Positions 1 to 18,547 of a DNA stretch of 20,903 nt are shown here, piece after piece. The position numbers were made by a program, and so were the translations under genes. The notes under the pieces were generated by a model. It was not told where the DNA came from. It searched no databases and saw only the letters and a list, made by a program, of their open reading frames with translations. Origin of the DNA: a virus; the UHGV virus genome UHGV-0121717. One strand, written 5' to 3'. The stretch's first letter is position 1. Each line of letters begins with the position of its first letter.

Positions 1-10
1 CAACCCTTAA

Positions 11-175
11 GTTAGCGCTTATGGGGTTATGCCCCATGTCACTGAAAAGATGCTGGGGCATGAACTTAGTGGTGTGATGGCGGTGTATAACAAACACGAC
101 TGGCTGGTGGAGCAGAAAGACGCTTATGAGCTTTATGCCGATAAAGTGTTCTGGCACGTCAAACAGCTCGGTTAA
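11..175 (+). CDS. Tyrosine integrase, extreme C-terminal fragment (P4/CP4-57-like); gene body lies upstream of the window or is a remnant
   Basis: Frame-2 translation VSAYGVMPHVTEKMLGHELSGVMAVYNKHDWLVEQKDAYELYADKVFWHVKQLG* fits the C-terminal pattern I recall for P4-type integrases (LGH...VYNxxDYxxER...WADxL). An in-frame TAA at 8-10 suggests a frameshift or decay. Below the ORF-track size cutoff. Confidence 0.4.
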   Translation, partial: VSAYGVMPHVTEKMLGHELSGVMAVYNKHDWLVEQKDAYELYADKVFWHVKQLG

Positions 176-344
176 CGCCTCCTTCGGCTATCCATTTCAT
201 AACGGCTTTTCTGCTATACCGCGTCGGGTACGTTAAAACTGGCTGAGGGAATCCGTGGTCTTTGCGTAAGCGCCATACTGCTGTTTTTTTCTTTTTGAGC
301 AGGTCGAAAACTTCCTGTTCTTCCATAAAATCAGTAGTAGTCAT
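159..344 (-). CDS. AlpA-family phage regulator / excisionase-like small HTH protein
   Basis: 61 aa starting MTTTDFMEEQ; GAGGA Shine-Dalgarno 5 nt upstream of the ATG at 344. The motif WRLRKDHGFPQPV...RKAVMKWI resembles AlpA/Xis-type winged-helix proteins. The track ORF 159-401 extends to an upstream Met with no ribosome-binding site. Confidence 0.5.
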   Translation of the reverse strand: MTTTDFMEEQEVFDLLKKKKTAVWRLRKDHGFPQPVLTYPTRYSRKAVMKWIAEGGVNRAV

Positions 345-397
345 GATTTTCCTCGTTGTTAAAGTCTTTATTGTCCGCAACTCTATTCTATGGTGAT

Positions 398-637
398 TCA
401 CGCCGCCCGCATCGAGCGCAGCTTCTTAATGTGCTCGCTCTGTTCCAGTTCAGCCCGGATCTGTCGGGCCTCATCATGGTCGAGCGGTTCAAAGTCGTTG
501 TTAAACCTGTACATGCTGGCCGTATTTATCCGTCCCTGGCGCCAGTAGCACACCGTTCTGGCGTCACAGCTGTGAATAATGACTGGCCATCCGTGACCGT
601 CTGGGAAAATCTGGCCTCGCTGAATGAGTTGAAACAC
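398..637 (-). CDS. Hypothetical phage protein
   Basis: 79-codon ORF with a GTG start 3 nt after the TraR stop and AGAGG 6 nt upstream; same strand and tight spacing as the neighbouring operon genes. No recognisable motif. Confidence 0.4.
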   Translation of the reverse strand: MFQLIQRGQIFPDGHGWPVIIHSCDARTVCYWRQGRINTASMYRFNNDFEPLDHDEARQIRAELEQSEHIKKLRSMRAA

Positions 638-640
638 GGC

Positions 641-859
641 TCACCTCTGATGCTTCCCGCGCTTTTCCGCTTCGTCCTGGCAGTCAGCGCAGCGCTGACA
701 ACCTGCCACCAGTTCCCGGCGCCGTGCCGGAATTGCCTCTCCACAATCAATGCAGTGCGTAGCCGATACCGCGTTATGGTTGATGCGATGGGCCTGTATC
801 GCCTTATCGCGGAGAAGCTCTTCTAATTCGCTGGCCTGATCGATAATTTCTGCGCTCAT
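641..859 (-). CDS. TraR/DksA-family C4 zinc-finger protein
   Basis: 72 aa with CIDC-x17-CQRC (two CxxC pairs) in the C-terminal half after an acidic helix; typical prophage TraR. Start overlaps the upstream gene stop (ATGA). Confidence 0.8.
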   Translation of the reverse strand: MSAEIIDQASELEELLRDKAIQAHRINHNAVSATHCIDCGEAIPARRRELVAGCQRCADCQDEAEKRGKHQR

Positions 860-1383
860 GCTGCCTCCATGGTTCCGATCCGCTTTAACTCACTCAGCGA
901 AACGGACGTGATGATGCGTCTTGGCGTGATGAATGGCCGCCAGATGAACAAAATTGAGTCCTTTGGGTTGCTCTGCCGTTTACCTGTAGCCGACGCCGGC
1001 ACAAACTGAATGCGTCCGCCGGTTATCAGGCGAATCTCATCAGCGCTCTGCATCGCGGAGAGAAACCATCCGGTAGAGATATCTGCGGGAAGCAGAATGA
1101 CTACCGTCTGGGACTGCGCTTTACATTGCTCGGTGGCTTTCTCCACCCACGGCCCGATATCGGAATAGGGTGGGTTGCACCAGATCGCGCCGTACGACGA
1201 CCATTCACGACTCAGCGAGTTATCCAGCTCAGTGAGATAGTGAGCGCATAGCGCATTACGTTCAGAGGCAGCAGCATCCAGCCAGAAGCCAAACTCAAGA
1301 TCGAGCGCGTTAAATATTTCAATCGGCGTTTGCCAGTAGTCTCTTTCATTTGTCGGTGTGTTCGATCCGCCGTAGTCAGTCAC
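856..1383 (-). CDS. Phage DNA N6-adenine methyltransferase (phage Dam family)
   Basis: 175 aa containing the WCNPPYS catalytic motif IV and the DYWQTP...LDAAA N-terminal pattern typical of phage Dam methyltransferases. GTG start overlapping the upstream stop. Confidence 0.8.
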   Translation of the reverse strand: MTDYGGSNTPTNERDYWQTPIEIFNALDLEFGFWLDAAASERNALCAHYLTELDNSLSREWSSYGAIWCNPPYSDIGPWVEKATEQCKAQSQTVVILLPADISTGWFLSAMQSADEIRLITGGRIQFVPASATGKRQSNPKDSILFIWRPFITPRRIITSVSLSELKRIGTMEAA

Positions 1384-1814
1384 AATGCCGTCTCCATTTC
1401 GTCGATATAAAGGCCAGCAGCAATCAGCCGGCGGCGCCGGGCTGCTTTCTCAATACATTCCCGGCGATTACCCTCTGCCGCCAGAGCCATAGAACGCCGA
1501 GTGAACAGGCGTGTTTTACCCTGAGGGGTAATAACCTTTGGCTTTGTGATCAGGTCAAAGGTGCGGTCACAGATGCCGTCCTCGTTGAGCCAGGTTTCCG
1601 ATGTAACCAGCTGTGCAATGCGCCCTTCGCCTCTGGTCAGGCCGTTCGCGACACGGTTAAATTCGATGAGCGTTACGCCGAATTTCTCTGCGATTTCGCT
1701 GCCAGTTACCGGGCGACCGCGCGTCTGAATCATCCAGATAACGCGCTCGCGGAGTCCGGAGAATTTCCCGGCCTTACCTGGTCTGCGGTAAAATGGTGTG
1801 CGTTTCATTTCCAC
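1380..1814 (-). CDS. Hypothetical phage protein with predicted winged-helix DNA-binding segment
   Basis: 144 aa; the segment VTGSEIAEKFGVTLIEFNRVANGL looks like an HTH. Translationally coupled to the Dam gene. Function not assignable from sequence. Confidence 0.45.
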   Translation of the reverse strand: MEMKRTPFYRRPGKAGKFSGLRERVIWMIQTRGRPVTGSEIAEKFGVTLIEFNRVANGLTRGEGRIAQLVTSETWLNEDGICDRTFDLITKPKVITPQGKTRLFTRRSMALAAEGNRRECIEKAARRRRLIAAGLYIDEMETAL

Positions 1815-1834
1815 TGCTCCCAGAGTATTTCGGC

Positions 1835-2317
1835 CTATTTGATCATCAGAGACGGCTTGCCGAGCTTTATTTGCGCCCCGGGCACGTCAATACCAGCTTC
1901 GATTTGATGCTTGATAGCCAGTTTGTCTGGTTTGATATTCGTCTCGTACTCGATGAATTCAGGCGGTAATGCGCTGGCGTCAGTAATCTCGACAGATTTA
2001 GAAGGTGCGCGAACCGTTACCTGATGAACTCCGGCTTTAAGTGATTTTTTACCGATGGTTTCCAATGATTTAGCGACATACTCCTTCATGCTTGCCACGC
2101 GGCTTTCGGCGGCTTTTGCACGCTCAGTAAGGCGCTTACTTTCTTCTTTCAGAGCCTCGGCATAAGCAGATTCGTTTTTGCAGACCGCAAGAATCTGCTC
2201 AACCTTTGCTTCCAGCTCCCACTCAATTCCATCAAGAGTGTCGGCTATCATTTCAGGCTCCATGCCGGAGTCAGTCAGCTTGGCGAAATCGTTGGCGATC
2301 TGATAAAGGGCTGTCAT
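1835..2317 (-). CDS. Siphovirus Gp157-like protein
   Basis: 160 aa starting [14 protein letters not shown], with a coiled-coil middle. Resembles the Gp157 family, which as I recall has been linked to phage resistance. GAAGAGG Shine-Dalgarno upstream. Confidence 0.5.
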
Positions 2318-2401
2318 TGGGTAACCTCTTCAAATTTGGCTTTACGCGTTGGCGAATAATCATTTCTGCCGGAAGAATGCCGGGATTGTATGCAAGTCCT
2401 C

Positions 2402-2692
2402 TCATGATTTACTCTCCACGAACTGGTCAACAGCCGTGCTAAGTGATACACCTAAAGTCTCGATATGCTGCTGAATATCCTGTAGTGTCTGCGCCTGAGA
2501 TAACAGGATTTCACGGTTGCATAACTCTTTAACCAGATGCTCAAACTTGCTGTAATAACCGATACGGCTTAGTGTTTCTTTCCCTGCATTCTCACCTTCT
2601 TTGATAATTCCTCTTTCGCTAAGAATCAGATCGTGTTTGGTTCCGGTAATAACGTATTTTCCGAGGTCGATGTTTAGCTTCATTGTTTTCAT
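2402..2692 (-). CDS. Hypothetical small phage protein
   Basis: Start chosen at [11 protein letters not shown] (GAGG 7-8 nt upstream) rather than the track's 2842, which would overlap the upstream gene by about 140 nt. No recognisable motif. Confidence 0.4.
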
Positions 2693-2702
2693 GGTAAATT
2701 CC

Positions 2703-2996
2703 TCAGTCATTACTGATAGCGCCATAGCGTGAGCGGTAATTACGCAGGCGCGGGTCAATTTCAGGGAAGTGGGTATATGTGGCTTTGCGGAATGGTCGGA
2801 TTGATGTCTGGTAAATTCGCTCGCGTTCTTCTTTCTCTGCAAGCCATATACAGTGGCGAAATTCCTTTTCCTCTTTCGTTTCCTGCGGTAGCGACATTAT
2901 CCGGTCGTAGTTTTTTCTGAATTTATCCAGCACCTCCGATATGGAATTGCCGGAACAACGGCGCGGGTCATCCGCACCATACAGAGGCGCTGGCAT
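2703..2996 (-). CDS. Hypothetical phage protein
   Basis: 97-aa ORF with an AAGGA ribosome-binding site; basic and charged. Lies directly downstream of the ssb-like fragment. Confidence 0.4.
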   Translation of the reverse strand: MPAPLYGADDPRRCSGNSISEVLDKFRKNYDRIMSLPQETKEEKEFRHCIWLAEKEERERIYQTSIRPFRKATYTHFPEIDPRLRNYRSRYGAISND

Positions 2997-3019
2997 GATT
3001 AAATCCTTATTTTTCTGAA

Positions 3020-3376
3020 TCAGAATGGGATGGAATCGTCGTATACAGGAGTGTTCTGCTGGTTACTACTTTGCTGCTGCGGGCCATTTCCTGAAGCTGC
3101 AAATCCAATCTTTGCATTCAGTAATTCAAGAGTGATTGATTGACCATTTTGCCCCTGATAAACATCAACCCTGATGTTTTCTCCGGTAATTTCCACAATG
3201 CCACCTTCAACAAGAACGCTACGGTAGTAATCCGCTTGCGCTCCCGGCTTGACAAATACAACGGCGCTGTAGTTTGTCCATTCTTTCTTTTTTGTCTGGC
3301 GATCGTAATACTGAACGCCAGCACGGATGTTGAATCCGATATCTCCGCTCTGGTTATCTGCATCATCGTCTGCCTG
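3020..3376 (-). pseudogene. ssb-like single-stranded DNA-binding protein, 3' portion only (5'-truncated)
   Basis: Stop-to-stop frame gives ...GNGPQQQSSNQQNTPVYDDSIPF*, the Gln/Gly-rich linker and acidic IPF tail characteristic of bacterial-type SSB. No ATG in the frame; it is cut near 3340-3376 where Rz homology begins on the other strand. Confidence 0.45.
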
Positions 3377-3757
3377 TCATGGGCGGTTAATCATTACCGT
3401 GATAACGCCATTACCTATAAAGAACAGCGCGATAAGGCCGCATTCATTATCGCTGACATGCAGAAACGTCAACGCAATGTAGCAGAACTCGACGCCAGAT
3501 ATACAAAGGAGCTTGCTGATGCTAACGCGACTATCGAAAGTCTCCGTGCTGATGTTTCTGCTGGGCGTAAGCGCCTGCAAGTCGCCGCCACCTGTGCAAA
3601 GTCAACGACCGGAGCCAGCGGCATGGGCGATGGAGAAAGCCCAGGACTTACAGCAGATGCTGAACTCAATTATTACCGTCTCCGAAGTGGAATCGACAAG
3701 ATAACCGCGCAGGTCAACTACCTGCAGGAGTACATCAGGACGCAGTGCTTAAAATAA
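3140..3757 (+). CDS. Rz: Rz i-spanin homologue; true Rz homology covers 3341-3757, with the native start and first ~7 codons missing
   Basis: [32 protein letters not shown] matches lambda Rz residues 8-39 almost exactly, and the rest aligns to lambda Rz. The only ATG-initiated ORF (3140) begins 67 codons upstream in sequence antisense to the ssb-like fragment. Confidence 0.75.
3513..3704 (+). CDS. Rz1: Rz1 o-spanin lipoprotein, embedded in the +1 frame of Rz
   Basis: 63-aa ORF wholly inside Rz in another frame; signal peptide ending in the lipobox VSAC followed by a proline-rich stretch ([14 protein letters not shown]), as in lambda Rz1. Confidence 0.7.
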
Positions 3758-3794
3758 TTTTAATTTCACTGAAATTTAATACGTGACTTTCAGG

Positions 3795-3823
3795 AAAATG
3801 CCTCGCAGATGCGGGGCATTTTT
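3795..3823 (+). terminator. Intrinsic terminator downstream of Rz
   Basis: AAAATGCCTCGC-AGAT-GCGGGGCATTTTT: about 12-bp GC-rich stem (one G-U pair), 4-nt loop, T-tract. Confidence 0.5.
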
Positions 3824-4173
3824 GTACAGGTATTTCACCGCGCACCGCAGCGCACTCAACCACGTCGAACCAAACCCTTTGGAATGAGCCTTTGAGTAGT
3901 CAGTTAGTGCTGGTGAGCCTTGACGGGCTGATCTCCTATGCAGCAAAGGTTCATCTCAAAGTAAGACGAACGCTATGACAAACCAAGATTCTATAGACCT
4001 ATCTGATCTTCGTGGAATGGTCATTTTTCCAGACAAAAGGTAATCACCATAGTCGTATGGCTATGAATCTTGTTGCTGCAGATAAGCATTTTGTGATTGA
4101 AGTGGTCAAATCTCTCAAATGCAGTAAAATGCAGTGCGCTATAATTCAATAACGGAGGGAGTAAGGAGAAGTC

Positions 4174-4794
4174 ATGAAAGATCAAGATGTTAGGTTCGCG
4201 GTGCATCATACGCTTTTGAAAGAATCGCATTTAGATCCAGACTGCCTTGTGGTCGATGAATTTTCCATATCCCTTGGCGCCAGTAGAGCAGACATTGCTG
4301 TAATAAATGGTGTTATACACGGGTACGAACTCAAAAGTGAATATGACTCTTTGGAGCGTTTGCCTCTTCAAATCAAGCATTATTCTTCTGTAATGGACAA
4401 GGTTACTCTTGTCGTAGCTGAGAAACATCTTGAGGGAGCATTAAAGTTAATCCCAGGTTGGTGGGGCGTTAAAACGGTTTCTGTTGGGCCAAAAGGCGCC
4501 ATTCTTATAAAGCACATGCGTGGAGAAAAGCTTAATCGAAACCATGACACATTGATGCTCGCTCAATTGCTTTGGAAAGATGAATGTATCGACGTACTTG
4601 AACGATGGGGCTATTCCAAAGGAATCAAAAGCAAGCCCCGATTTGAGTTATGGAATATTATTGCGGAAAATATTCCAATAGCGAATCTCAGGCTTGAAGT
4701 CAGAACAGCCTTAAAGAAACGCGTAGGCTGGAAAGTTAAGGCTTGGCAGGCTGAGTCTGCGCCAACCAATAAAGCTGTCTCACGACTAACGTAA
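4174..4794 (+). CDS. PD-(D/E)xK nuclease-like protein, uncharacterised; first gene of the moron cassette
   Basis: 206 aa; AGGAG Shine-Dalgarno 5 nt upstream. Motif E29 ... D40 (RADIAVI) ... E52-L-K54 (GYELKS) has the spacing of a PD-(D/E)xK active site. AT-rich relative to the flanking phage genes. Confidence 0.65.
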   Translation: MKDQDVRFAVHHTLLKESHLDPDCLVVDEFSISLGASRADIAVINGVIHGYELKSEYDSLERLPLQIKHYSSVMDKVTLVVAEKHLEGALKLIPGWWGVKTVSVGPKGAILIKHMRGEKLNRNHDTLMLAQLLWKDECIDVLERWGYSKGIKSKPRFELWNIIAENIPIANLRLEVRTALKKRVGWKVKAWQAESAPTNKAVSRLT

Positions 4795-5803
4795 TATGGT
4801 GCGTATGTGCAACTTTACGCCATTCTTTAGAGCCGCCAGATTTGTTAGCGCCTAATGATCTTTGGTAAATGTAATCATCCCCCCAACTAAATTTGGAACC
4901 AAAGACTTGATACTCTGGCGAACTAACAAGGGTAGTACATAAGTTTTTAGTTTGGCCCCATCCATTTCCTTTAACTGCGGTACCTTTTACAAAGATCCAT
5001 GAGGTATCGTTCGAATATCTCACTGAGACATACTGAGACATGAAGCGTGGGTCTACGCTCGTAATGGTAGAGCTAGCGGTGGGATAATCACTAAAACTTG
5101 GCGTTCTTCCATTGCTAAAATTCTGTACTACGTACATCCAAAGATCGTATTCATGGCGCGGAATATGATGAACTTGATGTTGCGGTATCCCTGCCTGTGA
5201 TGCTGGGTATGCGGTTGAAGATAAAATCAAGTTTCTCCACGGAGCTTGGCCTGATAATGTGTTGACCATGCTTAATGCTTGTTGTTTTAAACTATCAGTT
5301 GCGTTTTGAATATCTCCAAAATCAATGATTACATCAATTAAACTAGGATGAATATTTAAGTGGTTAACCAGACTTGTGAATTGGTGCCATGTCTGGGGGG
5401 TGATAGATATAGCGAGCCCATTGATTAAGTTGCGTTGAACAGCATGTATATAGTTTGTTGAATATGCGGGAGAAACAACAGGGATAATTTCCTTACCATT
5501 TACTCTAGCATCTTGGATACACATATCTAGAGGATGATGGCGGCTCGAACCATGTTTATCTAAATATTTAACATCCAGCAAAACAGGACGATTGGTTTTC
5601 CAGGATGCCGCAAGGTTAATACCGAAGTCAGATAAGTAAGAACTCAAACTCTTCTTGTAGCATTCGTTTTCATAATCCCAGTCTATGTCTGGAATGGTAA
5701 TGATCGGAGTAAAACCAGAGAGCGTAGTTTGATCTAAAAGCATCAGAGATTCATATTCAGCAGGCTTCCATTTCAGCTGTGGATAATATTGATGTTGACT
5801 CAT
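4736..5803 (-). CDS. Uncharacterised 355-aa protein, convergent partner of the PD-(D/E)xK-like gene
   Basis: AAGGAG Shine-Dalgarno 4 nt upstream of the ATG at 5803; 3' end overlaps the partner by 59 nt. Contains His clusters (HQVHHIPRH, HTHH) but no P-loop or other motif I can assign. AT-rich. Confidence 0.65.
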   Translation of the reverse strand: MSQHQYYPQLKWKPAEYESLMLLDQTTLSGFTPIITIPDIDWDYENECYKKSLSSYLSDFGINLAASWKTNRPVLLDVKYLDKHGSSRHHPLDMCIQDARVNGKEIIPVVSPAYSTNYIHAVQRNLINGLAISITPQTWHQFTSLVNHLNIHPSLIDVIIDFGDIQNATDSLKQQALSMVNTLSGQAPWRNLILSSTAYPASQAGIPQHQVHHIPRHEYDLWMYVVQNFSNGRTPSFSDYPTASSTITSVDPRFMSQYVSVRYSNDTSWIFVKGTAVKGNGWGQTKNLCTTLVSSPEYQVFGSKFSWGDDYIYQRSLGANKSGGSKEWRKVAHTHHITLVVRQLYWLAQTQPAKP

Positions 5804-6011
5804 TAAAACTCCTTAAAATCTTTACTTATCCTAAGTATAGTGTTATGGCGTAACGCCAATTGTTTTTATACACTTGAAAACATTAGGAAAAGTTGAGCTA
5901 TATCTAAATTTACAAAATTGGATGTTATAGAAATCGAGGTTTCAACTAGGCATGGAACTGCAAAATTTTTAATGCCTGCACGCGAAAGTCGTTGGCGGGT
6001 CCTTTCCGGTG

Positions 6012-6190
6012 ATCCAGACCGTTACGGGGCGGCGACCTCGCGGTTTTTCACTATTTATGAAAATTTTTCAGGGAAAATCATGTCGGTACTTATCGAATAT
6101 AACTTTTTGTTTTTTTTAATATTGCATCCGTAAAGGTCCGACATGAAAGTGTCCGAAAATGCCTTTTTCTGGCGTTTTCATGTCGGGCCT
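6012..6190 (+). other. cos DNA-packaging site (cosQ-side sequence, cosN, cosB with three R-like repeats)
   Basis: GGTGATCCAGACCGTTACG then GGGCGGCGACCTCGCGGTTTTTCACTATTTATGAAAATTTT (6027-6067) is near-identical to the lambda right-end/left-end junction as I recall it. Downstream copies of TCATGTCGG at 6078-6086 (+), 6138-6146 (inverted) and 6178-6186 (+), with an AT-rich spacer, mirror the lambda R3-I1-R2-R1 layout. Confidence 0.8.
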
Positions 6191-6214
6191 TGTATTTGAT
6201 AATGGGTTGTTTTC

Positions 6215-6763
6215 ATGAAGGTTAATAAAAAGAGGCTTGCCGAAATTTTCAACGTGGACCCGCGGACGATTGAACGCTGGCAGTCTCAGGGACTCCCTTG
6301 CGCCTCCAAAGGTAGTAAGGGCATTGAATCTGTATTTGATACTGCCATGGCAATTCAGTGGTATGCGCAGAGGGAAACTGATATCGAAAACGAAAAGCTC
6401 CGCAAAGAACTGGACGATTTGCGTGCTGCAGCGGAGTCAGATTTACAACCCGGCACCATTGACTATGAACGCTACCGGCTCACAAAAGCGCAGGCAGATG
6501 CGCAGGAACTGAAAAATGCCCGTGAAGACGGAGTAGTGCTGGAAACTGAACTGTTTACCTTCATTCTGCAACGTGTGGCACAGGAGATTTCGGGGATACT
6601 TGTGCGTGTGCCGTTGACATTACAGCGTAAATATCCGGACATTTCACCATCACACCTTGATGTGGTGAAAACTGAAATCGCGAAAGCCTCCAATGTTTCA
6701 GCTAAGGCCGGTGAAAACGTGGGCGGGTGGATCGATGATTTCAGACGCGCAGAAGGCAGCTAA
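6215..6763 (+). CDS. nu1: Terminase small subunit
   Basis: 182 aa; [12 protein letters not shown]...[10 protein letters not shown]...[27 protein letters not shown] aligns closely with lambda Nu1. Immediately downstream of cosB. Confidence 0.9.
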
Positions 6764-8663
6764 TGCAGCCGGTGCGATAGCAACAGGGCTTTTATCTCTC
6801 ATTATTCCTGTTCCACTGACGACAGTTCAGTGGGCCAATAAACATTATTACCTTCCTAAAGAGTCGTCTTATACCCCGGGGCGGTGGGAAACACTGCCGT
6901 TTCAGGTTGGCATCATGAACTGTATGGGCAACGATTTGATTCGCACTGTTAACCTGATTAAATCTGCCCGTGTTGGTTATACAAAGATGTTGCTGGGAGT
7001 GGAGGCTTATTTTATTGAGCATAAATCACGCAACAGCCTTCTTTTTCAGCCCACGGACTCAGCTGCTGAAGATTTTATGAAATCTCATGTTGAGCCAACG
7101 ATAAGGGAGGTTCCTGCGTTGCTGGAGCTGGCTCCATGGTTCGGAAGAAAACACCGCGATAATACGCTCACCCTGAAGCGTTTTTCCTCCGGTGTGGGTT
7201 TCTGGTGTCTGGGGGGAGCGGCAGCAAAAAACTACCGTGAAAAATCCGTGGATGTGGTCTGTTATGACGAGCTTTCCTCGTTCGAACCGGATGTTGAAAA
7301 AGAGGGTTCGCCAACCCTGCTGGGGGATAAACGTATTGAGGGCTCTGTATGGCCCAAATCCATTCGCGGCTCGACTCCTAAAATCAAAGGCTCCTGCCAG
7401 ATCGAAAAAGCCGCTAACGAGTCGGCACACTTCATGCGTTTTTATGTGCCCTGTCCGCACTGTGGGGAGGAGCAGTATCTGAAATTTGGCGATGAATCCA
7501 CGCCTTTTGGCCTAAAATGGGAGAAGGACAGCCCCGAAAGCGTTTTCTACCTCTGTGAACATCATGGCTGCGTGTTCCATCAGTCTGAGCTTGACCAGAG
7601 CAACGGGCGGTGGATCTGTGAAAACACGGGGATGTGGACCCGTGACGGTCTGACGTTTTTCAGCGCCGCGGATAATGAAATTCCGCCGCCGCGCTCCATC
7701 ACGTTCCATATCTGGACGGCGTACAGTCCGTTCACCACCTGGGTACAGATAGTCTATGACTGGCTGGATGCACTGAAAGATCCCAACGGCCTGAAAACCT
7801 TTGTGAACACCACGCTGGGCGAGACCTGGGAAGAGGCCGTGGGCGAAAAACTCGATCACCAGGTACTGATGGATAAGGTCGTGCATTACACGGCGGCGGT
7901 GCCAGCCCGGGTGGTTTATCTGACGGCGGGCATTGACTCGCAGCGAAACCGTTTTGAGATGTATGTCTGGGGATGGGCACCGGGAGAGGAAGCTTTTCTG
8001 GTGGATAAAATCATCATTATGGGCCGTCCCGATGAGGAAGAGACGCTGTTACGTGTGGATGCGGCGATCAACAAAAAATACTGCCATGCAGACGGAACCG
8101 AAATGACCATTTCCCGTGTCTGCTGGGACACCGGGGGGATCGATGGTGAAATTGTCTATCAGAGGTCAAAAAAACACGGTGTTTTCCGGGTGCTGCCGGT
8201 AAAAGGCGCATCTGTCTATGGCAAGCCGGTGATCACCATGCCGAAAACCCGCAATCAGCGGGGCGTGTATCTGTGTGAAGTGGGGACGGACACCGCAAAA
8301 GAAATTCTCTATGCCCGTATGAAAGCCGATCCCACTCCTGCGGATGAAGCCACGTCGTATGCCATCCGTTTTCCTGATGATCCGGAGATTTTTTCGCAGA
8401 CAGAGGCGCAGCAACTGGTCGCGGAAGAGCTTGTGGAGAAGTGGGAAAAAGGAAAGATGCGTCTGCTGTGGGATAACAAAAAGCGGCGTAACGAAGCGCT
8501 GGACTGCCTGGTGTATGCCTACGCGGCATTACGTGTGTCCGTGCAACGCTGGCAGCTTGATCTGGCTGTACTGGCAAAATCCCGGGAAGAAGAGACGACC
8601 CGGCCAACCCTTAAAGAACTGGCAGCGAAGCTGTCCGGAGGAGTGAATGGTTACAGTCGCTGA
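6735..8663 (+). CDS. A: Terminase large subunit
   Basis: Start taken at MISDAQKA (6735), overlapping the nu1 3' end as in lambda. Long near-colinear identity to lambda gpA ([49 protein letters not shown]). Confidence 0.9.
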
Positions 8664-8853
8664 ACTGCAGGCGCTGCGTCAGGCGCGCCTTGATTTATTA
8701 ACCGGTAAACGGGTGGTGTCTGTCCAGAAAGATGGTCGCAGAATTGAATATACGGCGGCTTCTCTGGATGAGCTTAACCGGGCGATCAATGATGCGGAGT
8801 CGGTACTGGGGACAACCCGGCGTCGCCGTCGTCCGCTGGGAGTGAGGTTATGA
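8647..8853 (+). CDS. W: Head-tail joining / head completion protein W
   Basis: 68 aa; LTGKRVVSVQKDGRRIEYTAASLDEL matches lambda gpW ([26 protein letters not shown]). Overlaps the A stop. Confidence 0.85.
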   Translation: MVTVAELQALRQARLDLLTGKRVVSVQKDGRRIEYTAASLDELNRAINDAESVLGTTRRRRRPLGVRL

Positions 8854-10442
8854 AACGAACGCCTGTCCTGATTGATGTGAACGGCGTTCCGCTTCGTGAG
8901 AGTCTCAGCTACAACGGGGGCGGTGCAGGATTTGGCGGGCAAATGGCGGAGTGGTTGCCACCGGCGCAGAGTGCCGATGCGGCCCTGCTACCCGCGTTGC
9001 GTCTGGGGAATGCCCGGGCAGATGATCTGGTGCGCAATAACGGAATAGCGGCTAATGCGGTGGCTCTGCATAAGGATCACATTGTCGGGCATATGTTTCT
9101 GATCAGCTACCGTCCGAACTGGCGCTGGCTGGGGATGCGGGAGACCGCAGCAAAAAGCTTTGTCGATGAGGTGGAGGCGGCCTGGTCGGAATACGCCGAA
9201 GGGATGTTTGGCGAGATCGACGTGGAAGGAAAACGCACGTTCACGGAATTTATCCGTGAAGGTGTGGGCGTTCATGCGTTTAACGGCGAAATCTTTGTGC
9301 AGCCGGTCTGGGATACGGAAACCACGCAGTTATTCCGTACGCGTTTTAAAGCCGTGAGTCCGAAACGGGTGGACACGCCTGGACACGGTATGGGGAACCG
9401 TTTTCTGCGGGCCGGTGTGGAGGTCGATCGATATGGCCGTGCCGTCGCGTACCATATTTGTGAGGACGATTTTCCGTTCTCTGGTAGTGGACGATGGGAA
9501 CGGATCCCGCGTGAACTTCCCACCGGGCGTCCGGCCATGCTGCATATTTTCGAGCCGGTGGAGGACGGGCAGACCCGTGGGGCTAATCAGTTTTACAGCG
9601 TCATGGAACGGCTGAAGATGCTCGATTCCCTGCAGGCAACACAGCTTCAGTCGGCCATAGTGAAGGCGATGTATGCAGCGACGATTGAAAGTGAACTTGA
9701 TACCGAAAAGGCCTTTGAATATATCGCCGGTGCGCCGCAGGGGCAGAAGGATAATCCGCTTATTAATATTCTGGATAAGTTCTCCACCTGGTATGACACG
9801 AATAGCGTGACGCTGGGCGGTGTCAAAATTCCGCACCTTTTCCCCGGTGATGATCTGAAACTTCAGACCGCGCAGGATTCAGACAATGGATTTTCGGCGC
9901 TTGAACAGGCGCTGCTGCGGTATATCGCCGCCGGTCTTGGCGTTTCCTACGAACAGTTGTCCCGTGATTACTCGAAGGTCAGTTATTCAAGTGCCCGCGC
10001 ATCCGCCAATGAGTCGTGGCGCTATTTTATGGGGCGGCGAAAATTTATTGCGTCCCGGCTGGCCACGCAGATGTTTTCCTGCTGGCTGGAAGAGGCACTT
10101 CTTCGGGGGATTATTCGTCCGCCACGGGCACGTTTTGATTTTTATCAGGCGCGATCAGCCTGGTCACGGGCTGAGTGGATTGGAGCCGGAAGAATGGCCA
10201 TTGACGGGCTCAAGGAGGTTCAGGAATCAGTGATGCGCATTGAGGCCGGACTGAGCACGTATGAGAAAGAGCTGGCGCTGATGGGCGAGGATTATCAGGA
10301 CATTTTCCGCCAGCAGGTCAGGGAATCTGCAGAGCGGGAAAAAGCCGGACTCTCACGTCCGGTGTGGATAGCGCAGGCGTATCAGCAGCAGATAGCGGAG
10401 AGTCGCAGGCCGGAAGAGGAGACAACACCACGTGAGACGTAA
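8850..10442 (+). CDS. B: Portal protein
   Basis: 530 aa with extensive identity to lambda gpB (ARADDLVRNNG, FEPVEDGQTRGANQFYSVMERLKMLD, LLRYIAAGLGVSYEQLSR). ATGA overlap with W. Confidence 0.9.
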   Translation: MKRTPVLIDVNGVPLRESLSYNGGGAGFGGQMAEWLPPAQSADAALLPALRLGNARADDLVRNNGIAANAVALHKDHIVGHMFLISYRPNWRWLGMRETAAKSFVDEVEAAWSEYAEGMFGEIDVEGKRTFTEFIREGVGVHAFNGEIFVQPVWDTETTQLFRTRFKAVSPKRVDTPGHGMGNRFLRAGVEVDRYGRAVAYHICEDDFPFSGSGRWERIPRELPTGRPAMLHIFEPVEDGQTRGANQFYSVMERLKMLDSLQATQLQSAIVKAMYAATIESELDTEKAFEYIAGAPQGQKDNPLINILDKFSTWYDTNSVTLGGVKIPHLFPGDDLKLQTAQDSDNGFSALEQALLRYIAAGLGVSYEQLSRDYSKVSYSSARASANESWRYFMGRRKFIASRLATQMFSCWLEEALLRGIIRPPRARFDFYQARSAWSRAEWIGAGRMAIDGLKEVQESVMRIEAGLSTYEKELALMGEDYQDIFRQQVRESAEREKAGLSRPVWIAQAYQQQIAESRRPEEETTPRET

Positions 10443-11937
10443 TCTTTCACACATTATTGCCGCAGCATTCAATGAACCGCTGCTTCTGGAGCCCGCCTAT
10501 GCGCGGGTTTTCTTTTGCGCGCTCGGGCGCGAGATGGGGGCAGCAAGTCTTTCGGTACCACAACAGCAGGTACAGCTTGATGCTCCCGGAATGCTGGCTG
10601 AAACGGACGAGTACATGGCCGGAGGTAAACGACCGGCCCGTGTTTACCGGGTGGTGAACGGTATTGCGGTACTGCCGGTGAGCGGCACGCTGGTGCACCG
10701 GCTGGGGGGGATGCGGCCATTTTCCGGAATGACTGGCTATGACGGCATTGTCGCCTGTCTTCAGCAGGCAATGGCAGATAGCCAGGTGCGGGGCATACTG
10801 CTGGACATTGACAGTCCGGGCGGGCAGGCCGCCGGCGCGTTTGACTGCGCTGACATGATTTACCGCCTCCGTCAGCAGAAGCCGGTCTGGGCACTGTGCA
10901 ATGACACGGCCTGTTCTGCAGCCATGCTGCTGGCGTCGGCCTGCTCCCGACGGCTGGTTACCCAGACATCCCGTATCGGCTCCATTGGCGTGATGATGAG
11001 CCATGTCAGCTATGCCGGTCATCTGGCGCAGGCCGGTGTGGATATCACGCTGATTTATGCCGGGGCGCACAAGGTGGATGGCAATCAGTTTGAAGCGTTG
11101 CCGGCAGAGGTTCGCCAGGATATGCAGCAGCGGATTGATGCGGCGCACCGGATGTTTGCCGAAAAAGTGGCGATGTATACCGGGTTGTCTGTGGATGCGG
11201 TCACGGGAACAGAGGCCGCCGTTTTTGAAGGTCAGTCCGGCATTGAGGCCGGGCTGGCGGATGAATTAATCAATGCGTCGGATGCCATCAGTGTGATGGC
11301 CACGGCGCTGAACAGTAATGTCAGAGGAGGCACTATGCCGCAATTAACTGCAACGGAAGCCGCCGTGCAGGAGAACCAGCGAGTGATGGGGATCCTGACA
11401 TGCCAGGAAGCGAAAGGACGTGAACAGCTTGCCACGATGCTGGCAGGGCAACAGGGCATGAGCGTTGAACAGGCCCGGGCGATTCTGGCCGCGGCGGCAC
11501 CGCAGCAGCCGGTGGCATCCGCGCAGAGTGAAGCCGATCGCATTATGGCGTGTGAAGAAGCGAACGGTCGTGAACAACTGGCGGCAACGCTGGCGGCGAT
11601 GCCGGAGATGACGGTGGAAAAAGCCCGCCCGATCCTGGCGGCTGCACCACTGGCGGATGCCGGGCCCTCACTTCGTGATCAGATCATGGCCCTGGATGAG
11701 GCAAAAGGGGCAGAAGCGCAGGCTGAAAAACTGGCGGCCTGCCCGGGAATGACCGTGGAGAGCGCCCGGGCTGTGCTGGCTGCGGGATCAGGTAAGGCAG
11801 AACCGGTCTCTGCATCCACAACCGCCCTGTTTGAACATTTCATGGCGAACCATTCACCGGCTGCGGTCCAGGGGGGCGTGTCACAGGCGTCAGAAGACGG
11901 TGATGCGGACGTGAAAATGCTCATGGCCATGCCATGA
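10432..11937 (+). CDS. C: Prohead protease / scaffold (S49 ClpP-like domain plus Nu3-like C-terminal scaffold region)
   Basis: GTG start; AFNEPLLLEPAYARVFFCAL and the GIAVLPVSGTL...MTGYDGI...KPVWAL core match lambda gpC. The C-terminal region carries three tandem copies of a module present once in lambda C. Confidence 0.85.
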   Translation: MRRNLSHIIAAAFNEPLLLEPAYARVFFCALGREMGAASLSVPQQQVQLDAPGMLAETDEYMAGGKRPARVYRVVNGIAVLPVSGTLVHRLGGMRPFSGMTGYDGIVACLQQAMADSQVRGILLDIDSPGGQAAGAFDCADMIYRLRQQKPVWALCNDTACSAAMLLASACSRRLVTQTSRIGSIGVMMSHVSYAGHLAQAGVDITLIYAGAHKVDGNQFEALPAEVRQDMQQRIDAAHRMFAEKVAMYTGLSVDAVTGTEAAVFEGQSGIEAGLADELINASDAISVMATALNSNVRGGTMPQLTATEAAVQENQRVMGILTCQEAKGREQLATMLAGQQGMSVEQARAILAAAAPQQPVASAQSEADRIMACEEANGREQLAATLAAMPEMTVEKARPILAAAPLADAGPSLRDQIMALDEAKGAEAQAEKLAACPGMTVESARAVLAAGSGKAEPVSASTTALFEHFMANHSPAAVQGGVSQASEDGDADVKMLMAMP

Positions 11938-11973
11938 AGTCAGTGCTGAACATCAATACGAGGTTTTAACAAT

Positions 11974-12321
11974 ATGGTGACGAAAACCATCACTGAACAG
12001 CGTGCGGAAGTACGTATTTTTGCCGGTAATGATCCGGCTCACACCGCCACAGGCAGCAGCGGGATTTCCTCGGCAACACCGGCACTGACACCCCTGATGC
12101 TGGATGGGGCCACCGGGAAACTGGTGGTCTGGGACGGACAGAAAGCCGGTAGTGCGGTTGGCATACTGGTACTGCCGCTTGAAGGCACAGAGGCGGTGCT
12201 GACCTATTACAAGTCGGGGACCTTTGCGACGGAGGCAATCCGCTGGCCTGAAAGTGTGGATGAACACAAAAAGGCCAACGCCTTTACCGGCAGTGCCCTG
12301 AGTCACGCGGCGCTGCCGTAA
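11974..12321 (+). CDS. D: Head decoration protein D
   Basis: 115 aa; DPAHTATG...TPLMLD...KLVVWDG...AVGILV...YKSGTF aligns with lambda gpD. Confidence 0.85.
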   Translation: MVTKTITEQRAEVRIFAGNDPAHTATGSSGISSATPALTPLMLDGATGKLVVWDGQKAGSAVGILVLPLEGTEAVLTYYKSGTFATEAIRWPESVDEHKKANAFTGSALSHAALP

Positions 12322-12378
12322 CACGTTATCAGGCCACCGCGTTGGCCTGACTGATTTCTTAATGAAAGGAACTGATTT

Positions 12379-12552
12379 ATGGGATTGTTTACGACCCGCC
12401 AGTTACTCGGTTATACCGAACAAAAAGTTAAATTCCGTGCGCTGTTTCTGGAGCTGTTTTTCCGCCGTACGGTGAATTTCCACACCGAAGAGGTGATGCT
12501 GGACAAAATTACCGGAAAAACGCCGGTACCAGATACGTATTGCCGGTTATGA
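12379..12552 (+). pseudogene. E: Major capsid protein E, N-terminal 57-codon fragment (truncated)
   Basis: MGLFTTRQLLGYTEQKVKFRALFLELFFRRTVNFHTEEVMLDKI matches lambda gpE residues 1-45; homology then stops and the frame ends at TGA 12550-12552. AAAGGA ribosome-binding site retained. Confidence 0.75.
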
Positions 12553-13030
12553 CACGGCACCGGAGGCGGTGTACGCCCGTCTTCACGAACAGCTGGGTGA
12601 GGGAACGGTCATCCATATTGTGCCGCGACTGGCCGGGGCCGGAAAGGGTGGACTGCAGATTGTGCTGGGGGCGGCAGCCATCGTGGGCTCTTTCTTCACT
12701 GCCGGGGCATCAATGGCGTTATGGGGTTCAGCCCTGGCAGCCGGTGGTTTTTCTGCCACCACGATGCTGTTTTCACTTGGAGCCAGCATGATTCTGGGCG
12801 GTGTGGCCCAGATGCTGGCCCCGAAGGCAAAAACACCGGATTACCGCGCAACGGATAACGGCAGACAGAACACGTACTTTTCCTCGCTGGATAACATGAT
12901 TGCCCAGGGGAACCCGATGCCGGTGCCTTACGGGGAAATGCTGGTTGGCTCCCGCCGTATATCCCAGGACATCAGCACCCGTGATGAAGGCGGGGGCGGA
13001 AAGGTCGTGGTTATCGGGCGACAGGGATAA
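12497..13030 (+). pseudogene. I: Tail assembly protein I, C-terminal fragment fused out of frame to the E fragment
   Basis: A different frame from E reads ...RYQIRIAGYDTAPEAVYARLHEQLGEGTVIHIVPRLAGAGKGG...GGKVVVIGRQG*, aligning with the C-terminal two-thirds of lambda gpI. An in-frame stop lies at 12494-12496; the only candidate start is GTG 12569. Confidence 0.75.
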
Positions 13031-13205
13031 AACATAAAAAAATCCCGCAGTGATCGCGGAGCTGCGGGGACAGACAAATGAAGATCAATGTGAAGGAGTT
13101 GTTTTTGTTACTCGGGCAAAAAAACACTAACGCAGCGAAATTATACGCGCCACAGTCAGTGTGTGAAAATGTGAAGATATTCAGAAATTTTATTCCGTCA
13201 TGACG

Positions 13206-13235
13206 CAGGCACCCGGTGAGGTGCCTGTTGTTTTT
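13206..13235 (+). terminator. Terminator-like hairpin in an extra segment between the I fragment and J
   Basis: CAGGCACC-CGGTGA-GGTGCCTG followed by TTGTTTTT: 8-bp perfect stem, 6-nt loop, T-tract. Confidence 0.4.
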
Positions 13236-13270
13236 GTGAGTGAACAATTATCACGGTAAGAGGTGATGTA

Positions 13271-16200
13271 ATGGGCAAAGGTGGCGGCAAGGCGCACACA
13301 CCGCGTGAGGCGAAAGACAATCTCAAATCCACGCAGATGATGAGCGTGATTGATGCGATTGGTGAGGGACCGATAGAAGGCCCGGTGAAAGGCCTGCAGA
13401 GTATTCTGGTGAACAAAACCCCGCTGACGGACACGGACGGTAATCCCGTGATACACGGTGTGACCGCGGTCTGGCGTGCCGGGGAGCAGGAGCAGACACC
13501 ACCGGAAGGCTTTGAGTCCTCCGGCTCTGAAACTGTACTGGGTGTCGAAGTGACCAGGGAAAAACCGGTAACACGCACCATTACGTCAGCGAACATTGAC
13601 CGCCTGCGGGTGACCTTCGGGGTGCAGTCACTGGTGGAGACCACGTCAAAGGGTGACCGTAATCCGTCCTCTGTCCGTCTGCTGATTCAGTTACAGCGTA
13701 ACGGTAACTGGGTGACAGAAAAGGATGTCACCATTAACGGCAAGACCACCTCACAGTTCCTGGCCTCGGTGATTCTGGATAATCTGCCTCCCCGCCCCTT
13801 TAACATCCGGATGGTCAGGGAGACGGCGGACAGCACCACGGACCAGCTGCAGAACAGAACGCTGTGGTCGTCATACACCGAAATCATCGATGTGAAACAG
13901 TGCTACCCGAACACGGCCATTGTGGGGATGCAGGTGGATGCGGAGCAGTTTGGTGGTCAGCAGATGACGGTGAACTACCATATCCGCGGTCGCATCATCC
14001 AGGTGCCGTCAAACTATGACCCGGAAAAACGCACGTACAGTGGTATCTGGGACGGCAGTCTGAAACCGGCATACAGCAACAATCCGGCCTGGTGTCTGTG
14101 GGACATGCTGACTCACCCGCGCTACGGCATGGGAAAACGTCTGGGGGCGGCGGATGTGGACAAGTGGGCGCTGTATGCCATCGGGCAGTACTGCGACCAG
14201 ATGGTGCCGGATGGCTTCGGGGGCACCGAGCCGCGGATGACCTTCAATGCGTACCTGGCACAACAGCGTAAGGCGTGGGATGTTCTCAGTGATTTCTGCT
14301 CGGCGATGCGCTGTATGCCGGTATGGAACGGCCAGATTCTGACGTTTGTTCAGGACCGCCTGTCGGATGTGGTGTGGCCGTACACCAACAGCGATGTGGT
14401 GGTGGATGATAACGGCGTGGGGTTCCGCTACAGCTTCAGTGCCCTGAAGGACCGGCACACGGCGGTGGAGGTGAATTACACCGACCCGCAGAACGGCTGG
14501 CAGACCTCCACGGAACTGGTGGAAGACCCGGAAGCCATACTGCGCTACGGGCGCAATCTGCTGAAGATGGACGCGTTCGGCTGTACCAGCCGCGGTCAGG
14601 CCCACCGTGCCGGGCTGTGGGTGATAAAGACCGGACTGCTGGAAACGCAGACGGTGGATTTCACGCTCGGGTCACAGGGGCTGCGGCACACGCCCGGTGA
14701 CATCATTGAAATCTGTGATAACGACTATGCCGGGACCCTGACCGGCGGACGTATCCTGTCCATTGATGCCGCCAGCCGCACCCTGACACTGGACCGTGAG
14801 GTTACCCTGCCGCAGACCGGTACCGCCACGGTGAACCTGATTAACGGCAGCGGTAAGCCGGTGAGTGTGGACATCACGGCACAACCGGCCCCTGCCCGGA
14901 TACAGGTCAGTGCCCTGCCTGATGGCGTGGCGACATACGGTGTGTGGGGACTCTCCCTGCCGTCACTGCGCCGTCGCCTGTTCCGCTGTGTCGCCATCCG
15001 GGAAAACACGGACGGCACCTTTGCCATCACGGCGGTGCAGCACGTACCGGAAAAAGAAGCCATCGTGGATAACGGGGCCAGCTTTGAGCCGCAGTCAGGC
15101 ACCCTGAACAGCGTTATCCCTCCGGCAGTGCAGCACCTCACGGTGGAGGTGAGTGCCTCAGACGGCCAGTATCTGGCGCAGGCGAAATGGGACACGCCGC
15201 GGGTGGTGAAAGGTGTGAGCTTCAGTCTGCGTCTGACCAGCGGAAGGGGGGATGACAGCCGCCTGGTGACCACCGCCATCACCGCAGACACGGCGCACCG
15301 TTTCAGTGGTCTGCCGCCCGGGGAATACACCCTGACGGTCAGGGCGATTAACAGCTATGGCCAGCAGGGCGAACCTGCCACCACCACGTTCCGGATTGAC
15401 GCCCCGGCAGCGCCTGCCACCATTGAACTGATACCGGGGTATTTTCAGATAACGGCGGTCCCGAAACTGGCTGTATATGACCCGACGGTACAGTTTGAAT
15501 TCTGGTTTTCGGAACAGCAGATTGCGGATATCAGGCAGGTTGAAACCTCCGCCCGCTATCTTGGCACGGCGCTGTACTGGATAGCTGCCAGTATCAATAT
15601 CAAACCGGGCCATGATTATTACTTTTATATCCGCAGTGTGAACACCGTTGGCAAATCGGCATTTGTGGAGGCCGTCGGCCGGGCCAGCGATGATGCCGAA
15701 GGCTACCTGAATTTTTACAAAGGGCTGATTAATAAAACACATCTCGGTAAAGAGCTGCTGGAAAACGCTGAACTGACGGAAGATAACGCCAGCAGACTGG
15801 AGGCGTTTTCGAAAGAGTGGAAAGACGCTAACGATAAATGGAATGCCATGTGGGGCGTCAGAATTGAGCAGACCGAAGACGGTAAGCATTATGTCGCGGG
15901 GCTTGGCCTCAGCATGGAGGACACGGAGGACGGTAAACTGAGCCAGTTTCTGGTTGCCGCTAACCGTATCGCGTTTATTGACCCGGCAAACGGGAATGAA
16001 ACGCCGATGTTTGTGGCGCAGGGCAATCAGATATTCATGAACGACGTGTTCCTGAAATACCTGACGGCTCCCACCATTACCAGCGGCGGTAATCCTCCTG
16101 CATTTTCCCTGACACCGGACGGGCGGCTGACGGCGAAAAATGCTGATATCAGCGGTAACGTGAATGCGAATTCCGGGACGCTCAACAACGTCACGATTAA

Positions 16201-16660
16201 CGAGAACTGTCGGGTTCTGGGAAAACTGTCCGCGAACCAGATTGAAGGCGATCTCGTTAAAACAGTGGGCAAAGCTTTCCCCCGGGACTCCCGTGCACCG
16301 GAGCGGTGGCCATCAGGGACCATTACCGTCATGGTTTATGACGATCAGCCGTTTGACCGGCAGATTGTTATTCCGGCGGTGGCATTCAGTGGCGCTAAGC
16401 ATGAGAGAGAGCATACTGATATTTACTCCTCATGCCGTCTGATAGTGCGGAAAAACGGTGCTGAAATTTATAACCGTACCGCGCTGGATAATACGCTGAT
16501 TTACAGTGGCGTTATTGATATGCCTGCCGGTCACGGTCACATGACACTGGAGTTTTCGGTGTCAGCATGGCTGGTGAATAACTGGTATCCCACAGCAAGT
16601 ATCAGCGATTTGCTGGTTGTGGTGATGAAGAAAGCCACCGCAGGCATCAGTATCAGCTGA
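13271..16660 (+). CDS. J: Host-specificity / central tail fibre protein J
   Basis: 1129 aa, colinear with lambda gpJ with high identity over most of its length ([21 protein letters not shown]...). The last ~130 residues diverge from lambda. Confidence 0.9.
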
Positions 16661-16679
16661 ATTTTATAACCCATATAAG

Positions 16680-16703
16680 GGCACCAGAAATGGTGCCTTT
16701 TTT
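16680..16703 (+). terminator. Intrinsic terminator after J
   Basis: GGCACCA-GAAA-TGGTGCC followed by TTTTTT. Confidence 0.65.
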
Positions 16704-16727
16704 ATTGCAGAAAAGCGAGAGGTAATT

Positions 16728-17327
16728 ATGCGTAAATTATGTGCTGTTATTATGTCTGCAGTCGTCTGGCTGGCCGCTGCGGGTGCGCCAGCGGGTGCAG
16801 CAGAGAGTCACTCCACTCTGAGTGCCGGGTATCTTCATACCCATTCTGATATGTCCGGCAGTGATGATTTAACCGGATTCAACGTGAAATACCGCTATGA
16901 ATTTACGGACACGCTGGGGCTGGTGACGTCATTCAGCTATGCAGGAGACATGAATCGCCAGCTTACCCGTTACAGTGATAGCCGCTGGCATGAAGATTCC
17001 GTGCGTAACCGCTGGTTCAGCGTGATGGCGGGGCCGTCTGTACGCGTGAATGAATGGTTCAGCGCGTATGCGATGGCGGGTGTGGCTTACAGCCGTGTGT
17101 CGACTTTCTCCGGTGATTATCTTCGCGTAACTGACAACAAGGGGAAAACGCACGACGTGCTGACCGGAAGTGATGACGCTCGCCACAGCAACACGTCTCT
17201 GGCGTGGGGGGCTGGCGTGCAGTTTAACCCGGCCGAATCCGTGGCCGTTGATGTCGCTTATGAAGGCTGCGGAAGTGGCGACTGGCGCACTGACGGGTTC
17301 ATCGTGGGTGTTGGCTATAAATTCTGA
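16728..17327 (+). CDS. lom: Lom outer-membrane beta-barrel protein (Ail/Lom family)
   Basis: 199 aa with signal peptide; near-identical to lambda Lom over most of its length (STLSAGYLH, NVKYRYEFTDTLG, GFIVGVGYKF end). Confidence 0.9.
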   Translation: MRKLCAVIMSAVVWLAAAGAPAGAAESHSTLSAGYLHTHSDMSGSDDLTGFNVKYRYEFTDTLGLVTSFSYAGDMNRQLTRYSDSRWHEDSVRNRWFSVMAGPSVRVNEWFSAYAMAGVAYSRVSTFSGDYLRVTDNKGKTHDVLTGSDDARHSNTSLAWGAGVQFNPAESVAVDVAYEGCGSGDWRTDGFIVGVGYKF

Positions 17328-17353
17328 TTAGCCAGGTAACACAGTGTTATGAC

Positions 17354-17380: not shown

Positions 17381-17391
17381 GTGGGGGGAAT

Positions 17392-18540: not shown

Positions 18541-18547
18541 GGAGGTC

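Follow-up and report, generated by a model that had tools for sequence, protein, structure and literature searches.

The closest described counterparts of the locus are the cos sites of the phages 21 and lambda. For phage 21, the site is already known together with the repeats, the IHF site and the matched terminase helix; they were sequenced between 1985 and 1993 and genetically dissected afterwards. The phage 21 records (X02501.1, OL657228.1 and M81255.1) annotate cosQ at bp -30 to -24, cosN at bp 1-12, R3 at bp 50-65, the IHF site I1 at bp 74-86, R2 at bp 107-122 and 'in opposite orientation', R1 at bp 150-166, a ribosome-binding site at bp 178-181 and gene 1 at bp 189-737. Lambda and 21 discriminate against each other's DNA more than 1000-fold, and this mutual discrimination is exerted through cosB and the small terminase subunit TerS (PMC4669245). 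The contacts between recognition helix and R sites have been dissected genetically for both phages (PMC4669245, PMC9026076). TerS contacts the segment bp 55-63 (PMC9026076), and bp 56, 58 and 59 are critical (PMC9026076, PMC4669245). The lambda equivalent of the spacer I2 is essential, and the sequence as well as the length of I2 are needed for initiation and termination (PMC4856287).

Here, we analysed a stretch of DNA comprising 20,903 bases, which is referred to as the window throughout. Judged by its sequence, the region 5997-6192 is a complete cos of the phage 21 packaging-specificity group with the order cosQ, cosN, I2, R3, I1, R2 and R1 (Table 1), and the cognate terminase genes follow directly. 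Each of the sequence features that we tested placed the site in this group. When the region 5900-6300 was compared with phage records by BLAST, phage 21 was the top match. Identity to the left end of phage 21 (X02501.1, OL657228.1) amounts to 99.3% over positions 6027-6300, i.e., from cosN bp 1 to bp 274, and addition of 6026 to the annotated phage 21 positions yields the positions of the features in the window exactly. The alignment runs without any gap from 6027 to 12527 (phage 21 bp 1-6501, 97.7% DNA identity) and bp 1-53 are identical, such that the distance between cosN and R3 is conserved to the base. The same is true for the spacing of all other elements, and cosQ, cosN, I2, I1, R2 and R1 are identical in sequence to those of phage 21. 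CosQ did not vary in any of nine aligned cos sites. The cohesive-end 12-mer GGGCGGCGACCT can be read from the window at 6027-6038, while the extent of cosN was taken from the literature (PMC4856287, PMC9026076). A scan for promoters and terminators returned promoter-like sites no more often than expected by chance and falsely flagged cosN as a terminator.

Table 1. Elements of the cos site, neighbouring genes and deletion junctions in the window.
Feature	Position	Strand	Basis
Putative excisionase, weak HTH_17 candidate	159-401		Profile match
Second deletion junction: minus-strand early-left (P22 abc2-type) genes joined to the interior of Rz	3342-3348	.	Comparison with relatives
cosQ (GGGTCCT), packaging-termination subsite	5997-6003	+	-30 to -24 from the nick; sequence and spacing as cosQ annotated in phage 21 (OL657228.1, 42902-42908)
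cosN, roughly 22-bp partly symmetric nicking site, holds GGGCGGCGACCT	6022-6043	+	Identical to phage 21 and lambda over bp -6 to +17
I2, spacer between cosN and R3, bp 18-49	6044-6075	+	Identical to phage 21
cosB R3, bp 50-65, AATCATGTCGGTACTT, critical TerS site	6076-6091	+	Matches annotated R3 in OL657228.1 (50-65) and M81255.1
I1 (IHF site), TAACTTTTTGTTT, between R3 and R2	6100-6112	+	Identical to annotated I1 of phage 21; IHF binding predicted
cosB R2, bp 107-122, inverted	6133-6148	-	Identical to annotated R2 of phage 21
cosB R1, bp 150-166	6176-6192	+	Identical to annotated R1 of phage 21
Small terminase subunit, phage 21 gp1/Nu1 homologue, 182 aa	6215-6763	+	PHROG 57, Pfam Phage_Nu1
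Large terminase subunit, phage 21 gp2/gpA homologue, 642 aa, full length	6735-8663	+	PHROG 15
Head genes W, portal B, protease/scaffold C-Nu3, decoration protein D, intact	8647-12321	+	Full length compared with phage 21
Deletion scar: out-of-frame fusion of the initial ~50 codons of major capsid gene E (12379-12552), junction 12527/12528; 3' part of tail gene I (12569-13030)	12379-13030	+	Comparison with intact relative
Integrase, intact, dusA-type	19756-20853	-	Gene scan

The 9-mer TCATGTCGG occurs in three exact copies in the entire window, at 6078-6086 (+), 6138-6146 (-) and 6178-6186 (+), in direct-inverted-direct orientation. Counted from cosN bp 1, the copies begin at bp 52, 112 and 152, which agrees with the positions of +51, +111 and +151 and with the orientation pattern given in an earlier note on this DNA. 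That note had also recognized a lambda-like R3-I1-R2-R1 geometry ending just in front of nu1, and both points are borne out by the alignment and by the annotation of phage 21: R1 ends at 6192 and the ATG of the nu1-like gene is found 23 bp further on, at 6215. The start of the site, placed at 6012 in the note, has to be moved 15 bp to the left, as cosQ had been omitted. The extended boxes can be aligned with each other (R3, AATCATGTCGGTACTT; R2, TTTCATGTCGGACCTT; R1, TTTCATGTCGGGCCTT), and R2 and R1 together form a 27-nt imperfect inverted repeat with 81% complementarity. All three boxes have the 21-type core C[A/G]TGTCGG, with R2 inverted relative to R3 and R1, and R3 carries the 21-specific G at bp 56 as well as G at bp 59.

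Compared with lambda, the architecture, the orientation pattern of the boxes and their spacing are the same and cosQ is identical. The view that cosN and its flanks are almost unchanged from lambda proved correct for bp -6 to +17, which are identical, but not for positions -7 to -11 left of the nick (6016-6020), which differ. This change of 4-5 bp falls in the stretch from cosQ to cosN, where spacing is important for termination and sequence may be as well. A three-way alignment revealed that the core of the R boxes reads CGTTTCC in lambda and CATGTCGG here. The terminases are homologous, and gp1 shares 53% identity with lambda Nu1 over 73 aligned N-terminal residues. Its recognition helix, RTIERWQS (residues 17-24), differs from the lambda helix RTIQNWQE at positions 20, 21 and 24. 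Binding sites and TerS helix-turn-helix thus differ from lambda in a matched way, just as had been noticed earlier. The co-evolved specificity suggested on these grounds is, however, not a new one but the textbook specificity of phage 21, as evident from the DNA identity of 99.3% to the annotated records (X02501, OL657228) and from gp1 itself. The latter is identical to phage 21 gp1 in 181 of 182 residues. The sole exchange is A162S, residues 1-161 are the same, and this includes both the recognition helix and the wing SKGSKGIES (residues 31-39). The large subunit gp2 is collinear with its phage 21 counterpart, from which it differs by 15 substitutions, and contains no stop codon. Both terminase genes (182 and 642 codons for amino acids) are therefore intact, as had been stated. 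On the branch that leads to the window, 31 synonymous changes stand against 13 non-synonymous ones in the head genes further downstream. The resulting dN/dS of about 0.13 resembles that of intact relatives, and relaxed selection on the head genes was rejected on this basis. These genes show no sign of decay, nor of special retention.

In contrast to phage 21, the surrounding prophage is defective, and the region left of cosQ is unrelated, with a beta/sce7726 cassette in place of the right end of phage 21. The assessment in the earlier note that the prophage is non-viable was substantiated by the mapping of two deletions. Comparison with an intact relative (L005/STLEFF_47) showed that the first deletion removed 8,654 bp (8.65 kb) from about codon 50 of E to about 70 bp into gene I, at an imperfect GC[C/T]GGT microhomology, and with it E, FI, FII, Z, U, V, G, T, H, M, L and K. 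The second deletion lies to the left. The early-left genes preserved at its junction include an anti-RecBCD gene of the P22 type, Gam-like and TraR-like genes and a methylase fragment, while immunity region, repressor, O/P replication genes, Q, the late promoter pR', holin and endolysin are missing. Neither capsids, tails and lysis proteins nor late transcripts can be produced. In other words, the element retains the full set of cis elements and both terminase genes but has neither the means to express them nor a shell to fill. As Q and the late promoter are gone, nothing known would drive the element's own terminase genes.

An exact look-up of the open reading frame created by the fusion at E' retrieved the E-I junction from at least five human-gut metagenome assemblies, and the cos site is identical in all copies. 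One contig (ENA ERZ651857, NODE_44) is 100% identical to window positions 2379-20903. Another copy (L012) has the E-I deletion but still carries lysozyme and a complete Rz, and it follows that the left deletion came later. Among 5426 complete E. coli genomes, none contained the E'-'I junction and none covered the window to 80% or more; an exact scan of the GTDB species-representative genomes for the junction also gave zero matches. The copies of the deleted element are 99.5-100% identical and occupy the same chromosomal site, which points to vertical inheritance in one lineage. On the right, int is followed by dusA, pspG and qorA with 99.9% identity to E. coli, identifying E. coli as the host and dusA as the site of the prophage. 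The same arrangement led us to reject a tandem prophage on the right with a second co-oriented cos. The left end of the window holds a fragment of a foreign integrase. No att or terminal repeats were found when the two window ends were compared with each other or the left end with the 5' region of dusA. The deletions appear to be recent, as suggested by the intact reading frames and by dN/dS values like those of intact relatives, and most of the divergence behind these values may predate them.

It is nothing unusual for a dead prophage to have a complete cos. In E. coli K-12, the cryptic prophages DLP12 (cos upstream of nohD) and Qin (cos upstream of nohA) likewise have a complete cosQ-cosN-cosB next to a gene for a Nu1 homologue and have lost head and tail genes. 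They differ from the element studied here in that the large terminase gene is lost in K-12 and intact here, and in that their cos is lambda-type. We had also considered the K-12 sites as 21-specific, and this was rejected upon alignment. About one in five of the complete E. coli genomes (1190 of 5426) contains a 21-type cos, with up to five copies per genome. The feature is thus known and ordinary and carries little weight as a discovery. What is gained are base-exact coordinates for cosQ, cosN, I2, R3, I1, R2 and R1 in a defective dusA-integrated prophage, together with an example of a packaging site that is recognizable from sequence alone, as it was for the author of the earlier note.

The way in which such a site works is established for lambda and 21, and near-identity suggests the same for the element described here (PMC4669245, PMC9026076, PMC4856287). 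Winged-helix dimers of gp1 would bind to R3 and to R2 in its inverted orientation, on either side of a bend that IHF induces at I1, with R1 assisting. Bound gp1 would anchor the large subunit gp2 on cosN, where gp2 would set nicks staggered by 12 nt. Terminase would then remain on the cosB-bearing end, dock on the portal of a prohead and move the DNA rightwards until the filled head meets cosQ-cosN-I2 of the next cos, whatever the type of its cosB. In the present case, cos would be cut only if a 21-specific terminase were available, either from a co-resident or infecting 21-type phage or because the element's own gp1 and gp2 happened to be expressed. Once the chromosome had been cut, packaging would be expected to run in one direction, starting at cos, passing J and int and entering dusA-pspG-qorA. 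Since a downstream cos that could finish the particle is lacking, these events would be abortive and would not amount to satellite-like transfer. The docL particles of lambda are a case in point: unterminated packaging yields abortive, tail-less products instead of transducing phage. We are confident that the site represents a passive relic of a phage-21-type head module in a recently gutted dusA prophage of an E. coli lineage, with abortive packaging as the expected outcome. As a phage 21 cos it is passive but probably competent.

In principle, a complete cos next to intact terminase genes could also belong to a helper-dependent, satellite-like element. Such an element would be excised by the dusA-type integrase and an excisionase, multimerized and packaged from its 21-type cos, perhaps as a dimer, into the capsids and tails of a co-resident 21-type phage. 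Cutting or packaging with the aid of a helper is indeed plausible and has precedent. Defective lambdoid prophages of E. coli O157 Sakai are packaged with the help of neighbouring prophages, their cos being identical to that of potential helpers and their head defects complementable in trans; Sp4, for example, is apparently packaged via the terminase of Sp14 (PMC2669165). Small cos-bearing cosmids are packaged by a helper as linear multimers (PMC4856287). The completeness of cos, the intact genes for terminase, portal and protease, the intact integrase along with the putative excisionase, and the recovery of the same deleted form from at least five independent gut samples are all compatible with such a life cycle. 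The same applies to size: the window corresponds to 49% of the phage 21 genome, and two units of 20.9 kb would add up to 97% of it (a ratio of 0.97).

Several observations argue against this scenario. Unlike the O157 Sakai prophages, which have been demonstrated to excise and amplify, the element lacks a replication module: PHROG and Pfam scans of its open reading frames revealed no such module (primase or Rep plus an origin), and the O/P region is deleted. No repressor or antirepressor that could serve in a helper-sensing regulatory module was detected among the scanned reading frames of at least 50 aa, and the immunity region is deleted. Likewise, the scanned reading frames did not include a gene for redirection of packaging or capsid size of the Rpp, Sid, Cpm or Ppi type; ordinary terminase genes are present instead. 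The comparison with PICIs is instructive in this respect. These are also chromosomal elements with a lambda-family cosN that rely on the virion proteins of a helper (PMC9026076). They possess replication and regulatory modules of their own and no terminase genes, neither of which applies here, and their Rpp protein, which redirects helper TerS to a different R3-like site, has no counterpart in the window. There is only one cos, and nothing in the element would generate multimers. The element is built like a lambdoid prophage that has suffered two illegitimate deletions, an intermediate form still has its lysis genes, and near-identical copies at a single chromosomal site fit vertical inheritance. 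An att repeat was not found in the window, and the absence of the junction from the 5426 complete E. coli genomes shows that the element is not spreading widely. The parallel with satellites drawn in the earlier note is therefore weak: replication and regulatory modules, Q and the late promoter are gone, the only cos is followed by host genes, and the length is only about half that of phage 21. A satellite lifestyle is unlikely, and we attach very little credence to the full sequence of excision, multimerization and helper-dependent packaging.

The interpretation of cos as a passive but probably competent relic also depends on whether its differences from phage 21 are tolerated. Within cosB, there are only two, G to A at bp 54 (window position 6080) and C to A at bp 66 (6092). 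Both are located outside the TerS-contacted segment and spare the three critical positions within it. With A at bp 54, the core of R3 reads CATGTCGG as in R1 and R2, whereas it is CGTGTCGG in phage 21 R3, and the isolated phage IdasGreatGrand likewise has A at this position. The exchange at bp 66 sits between R3 and I1, outside both, and is confined to the deletion lineage among the sequences compared. Six further differences in the left flank (6009, 6010 and 6017-6020) fall between cosQ and the 22-bp cosN and touch neither of them. Prophages of E. coli WS3294A and STLEFF_47 share the left-flank variant (-7 to -10), and the one in STLEFF_47 has a late operon that is complete from holin to tail-fibre assembly. 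The variant also occurs in seven IMG/VR contigs, among them contigs of 47 and 48 kb, and is joined in these contigs to at least four different types of cosB. This distribution fits recombination at the conserved cosN and argues that the flank is neutral with respect to packaging specificity.

It is nevertheless conceivable that these exchanges, i.e., bp 54 G to A, bp 66 C to A and the block at -7 to -10, have abolished nicking, termination or TerS binding and that cos merely looks intact. Selection for packaging has no bearing on a dead prophage, the exchange at bp 66 is seen solely in the deletion lineage among the sequences compared, and the left-flank block is placed between cosQ and cosN. 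On the other side, cosQ, the entire 22-bp cosN, I2, R3 from bp 55 to bp 65, I1, R2 and R1 are all as in phage 21. A54 brings R3 into line with the other two boxes and is found in an isolated phage, bp 66 belongs to neither R3 nor I1, and the left-flank variant is carried by prophages with full late operons and by viral contigs of 47-48 kb. We consider a loss of activity highly improbable, and the features listed suggest that cos is cleavable.

More doubtful still is the idea that the remnant has stayed mobile, with the dusA-type integrase excising it and a co-resident 21-specific phage packaging 41.8-kb dimers from its cos, or, alternatively, that cos serves as an in situ start for one-way packaging of dusA-pspG-qorA. 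If dimers were mobilized, the element would be a terminase-bearing, capsid-less 'hitchhiker' spreading the beta/sce7726 (PD-Lambda-2-like) defence cassette. Mobilization as such would add one more case to the known phenomenon of a 'defective prophage pool'.

Finally, we examined how often the 9-mer TCATGTCGG is expected in DNA of this composition. Significance was judged by the exact search: the chance expectation is 0.20 copies, and three or more copies were not obtained in any of 100 dinucleotide-preserving shuffles of the whole window. With one mismatch allowed, six matches were found in the window compared with 5.4 expected, such that this search merely reports background and is uninformative. 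The notion that the three 9-mers arose by chance or from low-complexity sequence and have nothing to do with packaging, to which the lack of enrichment in the one-mismatch search might seem to lend support, is refuted by the shuffle test and by the coincidence of the three exact copies with the annotated R3, R2 and R1 of phage 21.

The stretch that leads from cosQ into cosN (window 6012-6044, GATCCAGACCGTTACG...) is identical in seven IMG/VR viral contigs (L020-L026), where it precedes at least four different types of cosB, one of them lambda-type. This pattern suggests that genome-end and terminase modules are shuffled by recombination at the invariant cosN. Complete lambda-type cosQ-cosN-R3-I1-R2-R1 arrays are also retained in both K-12 cryptic prophages, DLP12 and Qin, each adjoined by a Nu1 homologue. 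A terminator scan flagged cosN itself (6025-6040), where the hairpin CGGGGCGGCGACCTCG is followed by the T-run CGGTTTTTCA. This call is a false positive that arises because cosN has dyad symmetry and I2 is T-rich.

Coordinates of features in the window and in comparison loci
Feature	Position	Strand	Remark
DLP12 cos (K-12)	L018 4600-4850		upstream of nohD
Qin cos (K-12)	L019 5355-5610	-	upstream of nohA
Flank copies, examples	L025 6335-6367; L026 12053-12085		identical to window 6012-6044
Tyrosine integrase, C-terminal fragment (...LGHELSGVMAVYNKHDW...)	2-175	+	reads rightwards
Putative excisionase	159-401	-	weak HTH_17 match
Truncated DNA methyltransferase	856-1383	-	
Mu Gam-like end-protection protein	1835-2317	-	
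P22 Abc2 anti-RecBCD protein	2703-2996	-	
Cassette gene 1	4174-4794	+	between Rz remnant and cos
Cassette gene 2	4736-5803	-	between Rz remnant and cos
Side tail-fibre ORF	17392-18540	+	382 aa
DinI-like gene and intact 365-aa integrase	19446-20853	-	with L013 18564-20174

Both deletions look like products of illegitimate recombination. The one from E to I (8,654 bp; 12519-12530) lies at an imperfect GC[C/T]GGT microhomology, and at the left junction (3342-3348) a P22-type abc2 region is fused to Rz, 28 bp inside the gene. Between the Rz remnant and cos, a two-gene cassette occupies the position at which lambda and phage 21 carry bor. Its genes gave Pfam matches to Phage_P4_cII/'sce7726 family' and Beta_protein and matches to the PADLOC models 'cll', 'beta' and PD-Lambda-2_C, which makes the cassette a candidate moron for defence against phages. 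In L015, one of the metagenome copies, the beta gene is split.

Mosaicism marks the early-left region, where the truncated DNA methyltransferase, the Mu Gam-like protein and the P22 Abc2 protein are all unlike the exo-bet-gam region of phage 21. Further left, the integrase fragment and the putative excisionase are convergent, and the left end seems to have been rearranged or to border another integrative element. The source contig stops some 30 bp further to the left. At the right end of the prophage (window 19446-20853; L013 18564-20174), the DinI-like gene and the integrase are directly adjoined by dusA-pspG-qorA, which indicates that the integrase targets dusA. An att repeat was sought in the window and not found.

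The side tail-fibre ORF differs in length from those of other copies (367 and 412 aa), which are otherwise 99.5-99.8% identical. Since it contains internal repeats of about 83% identity, its collagen-like repeats are suggested to vary in copy number.
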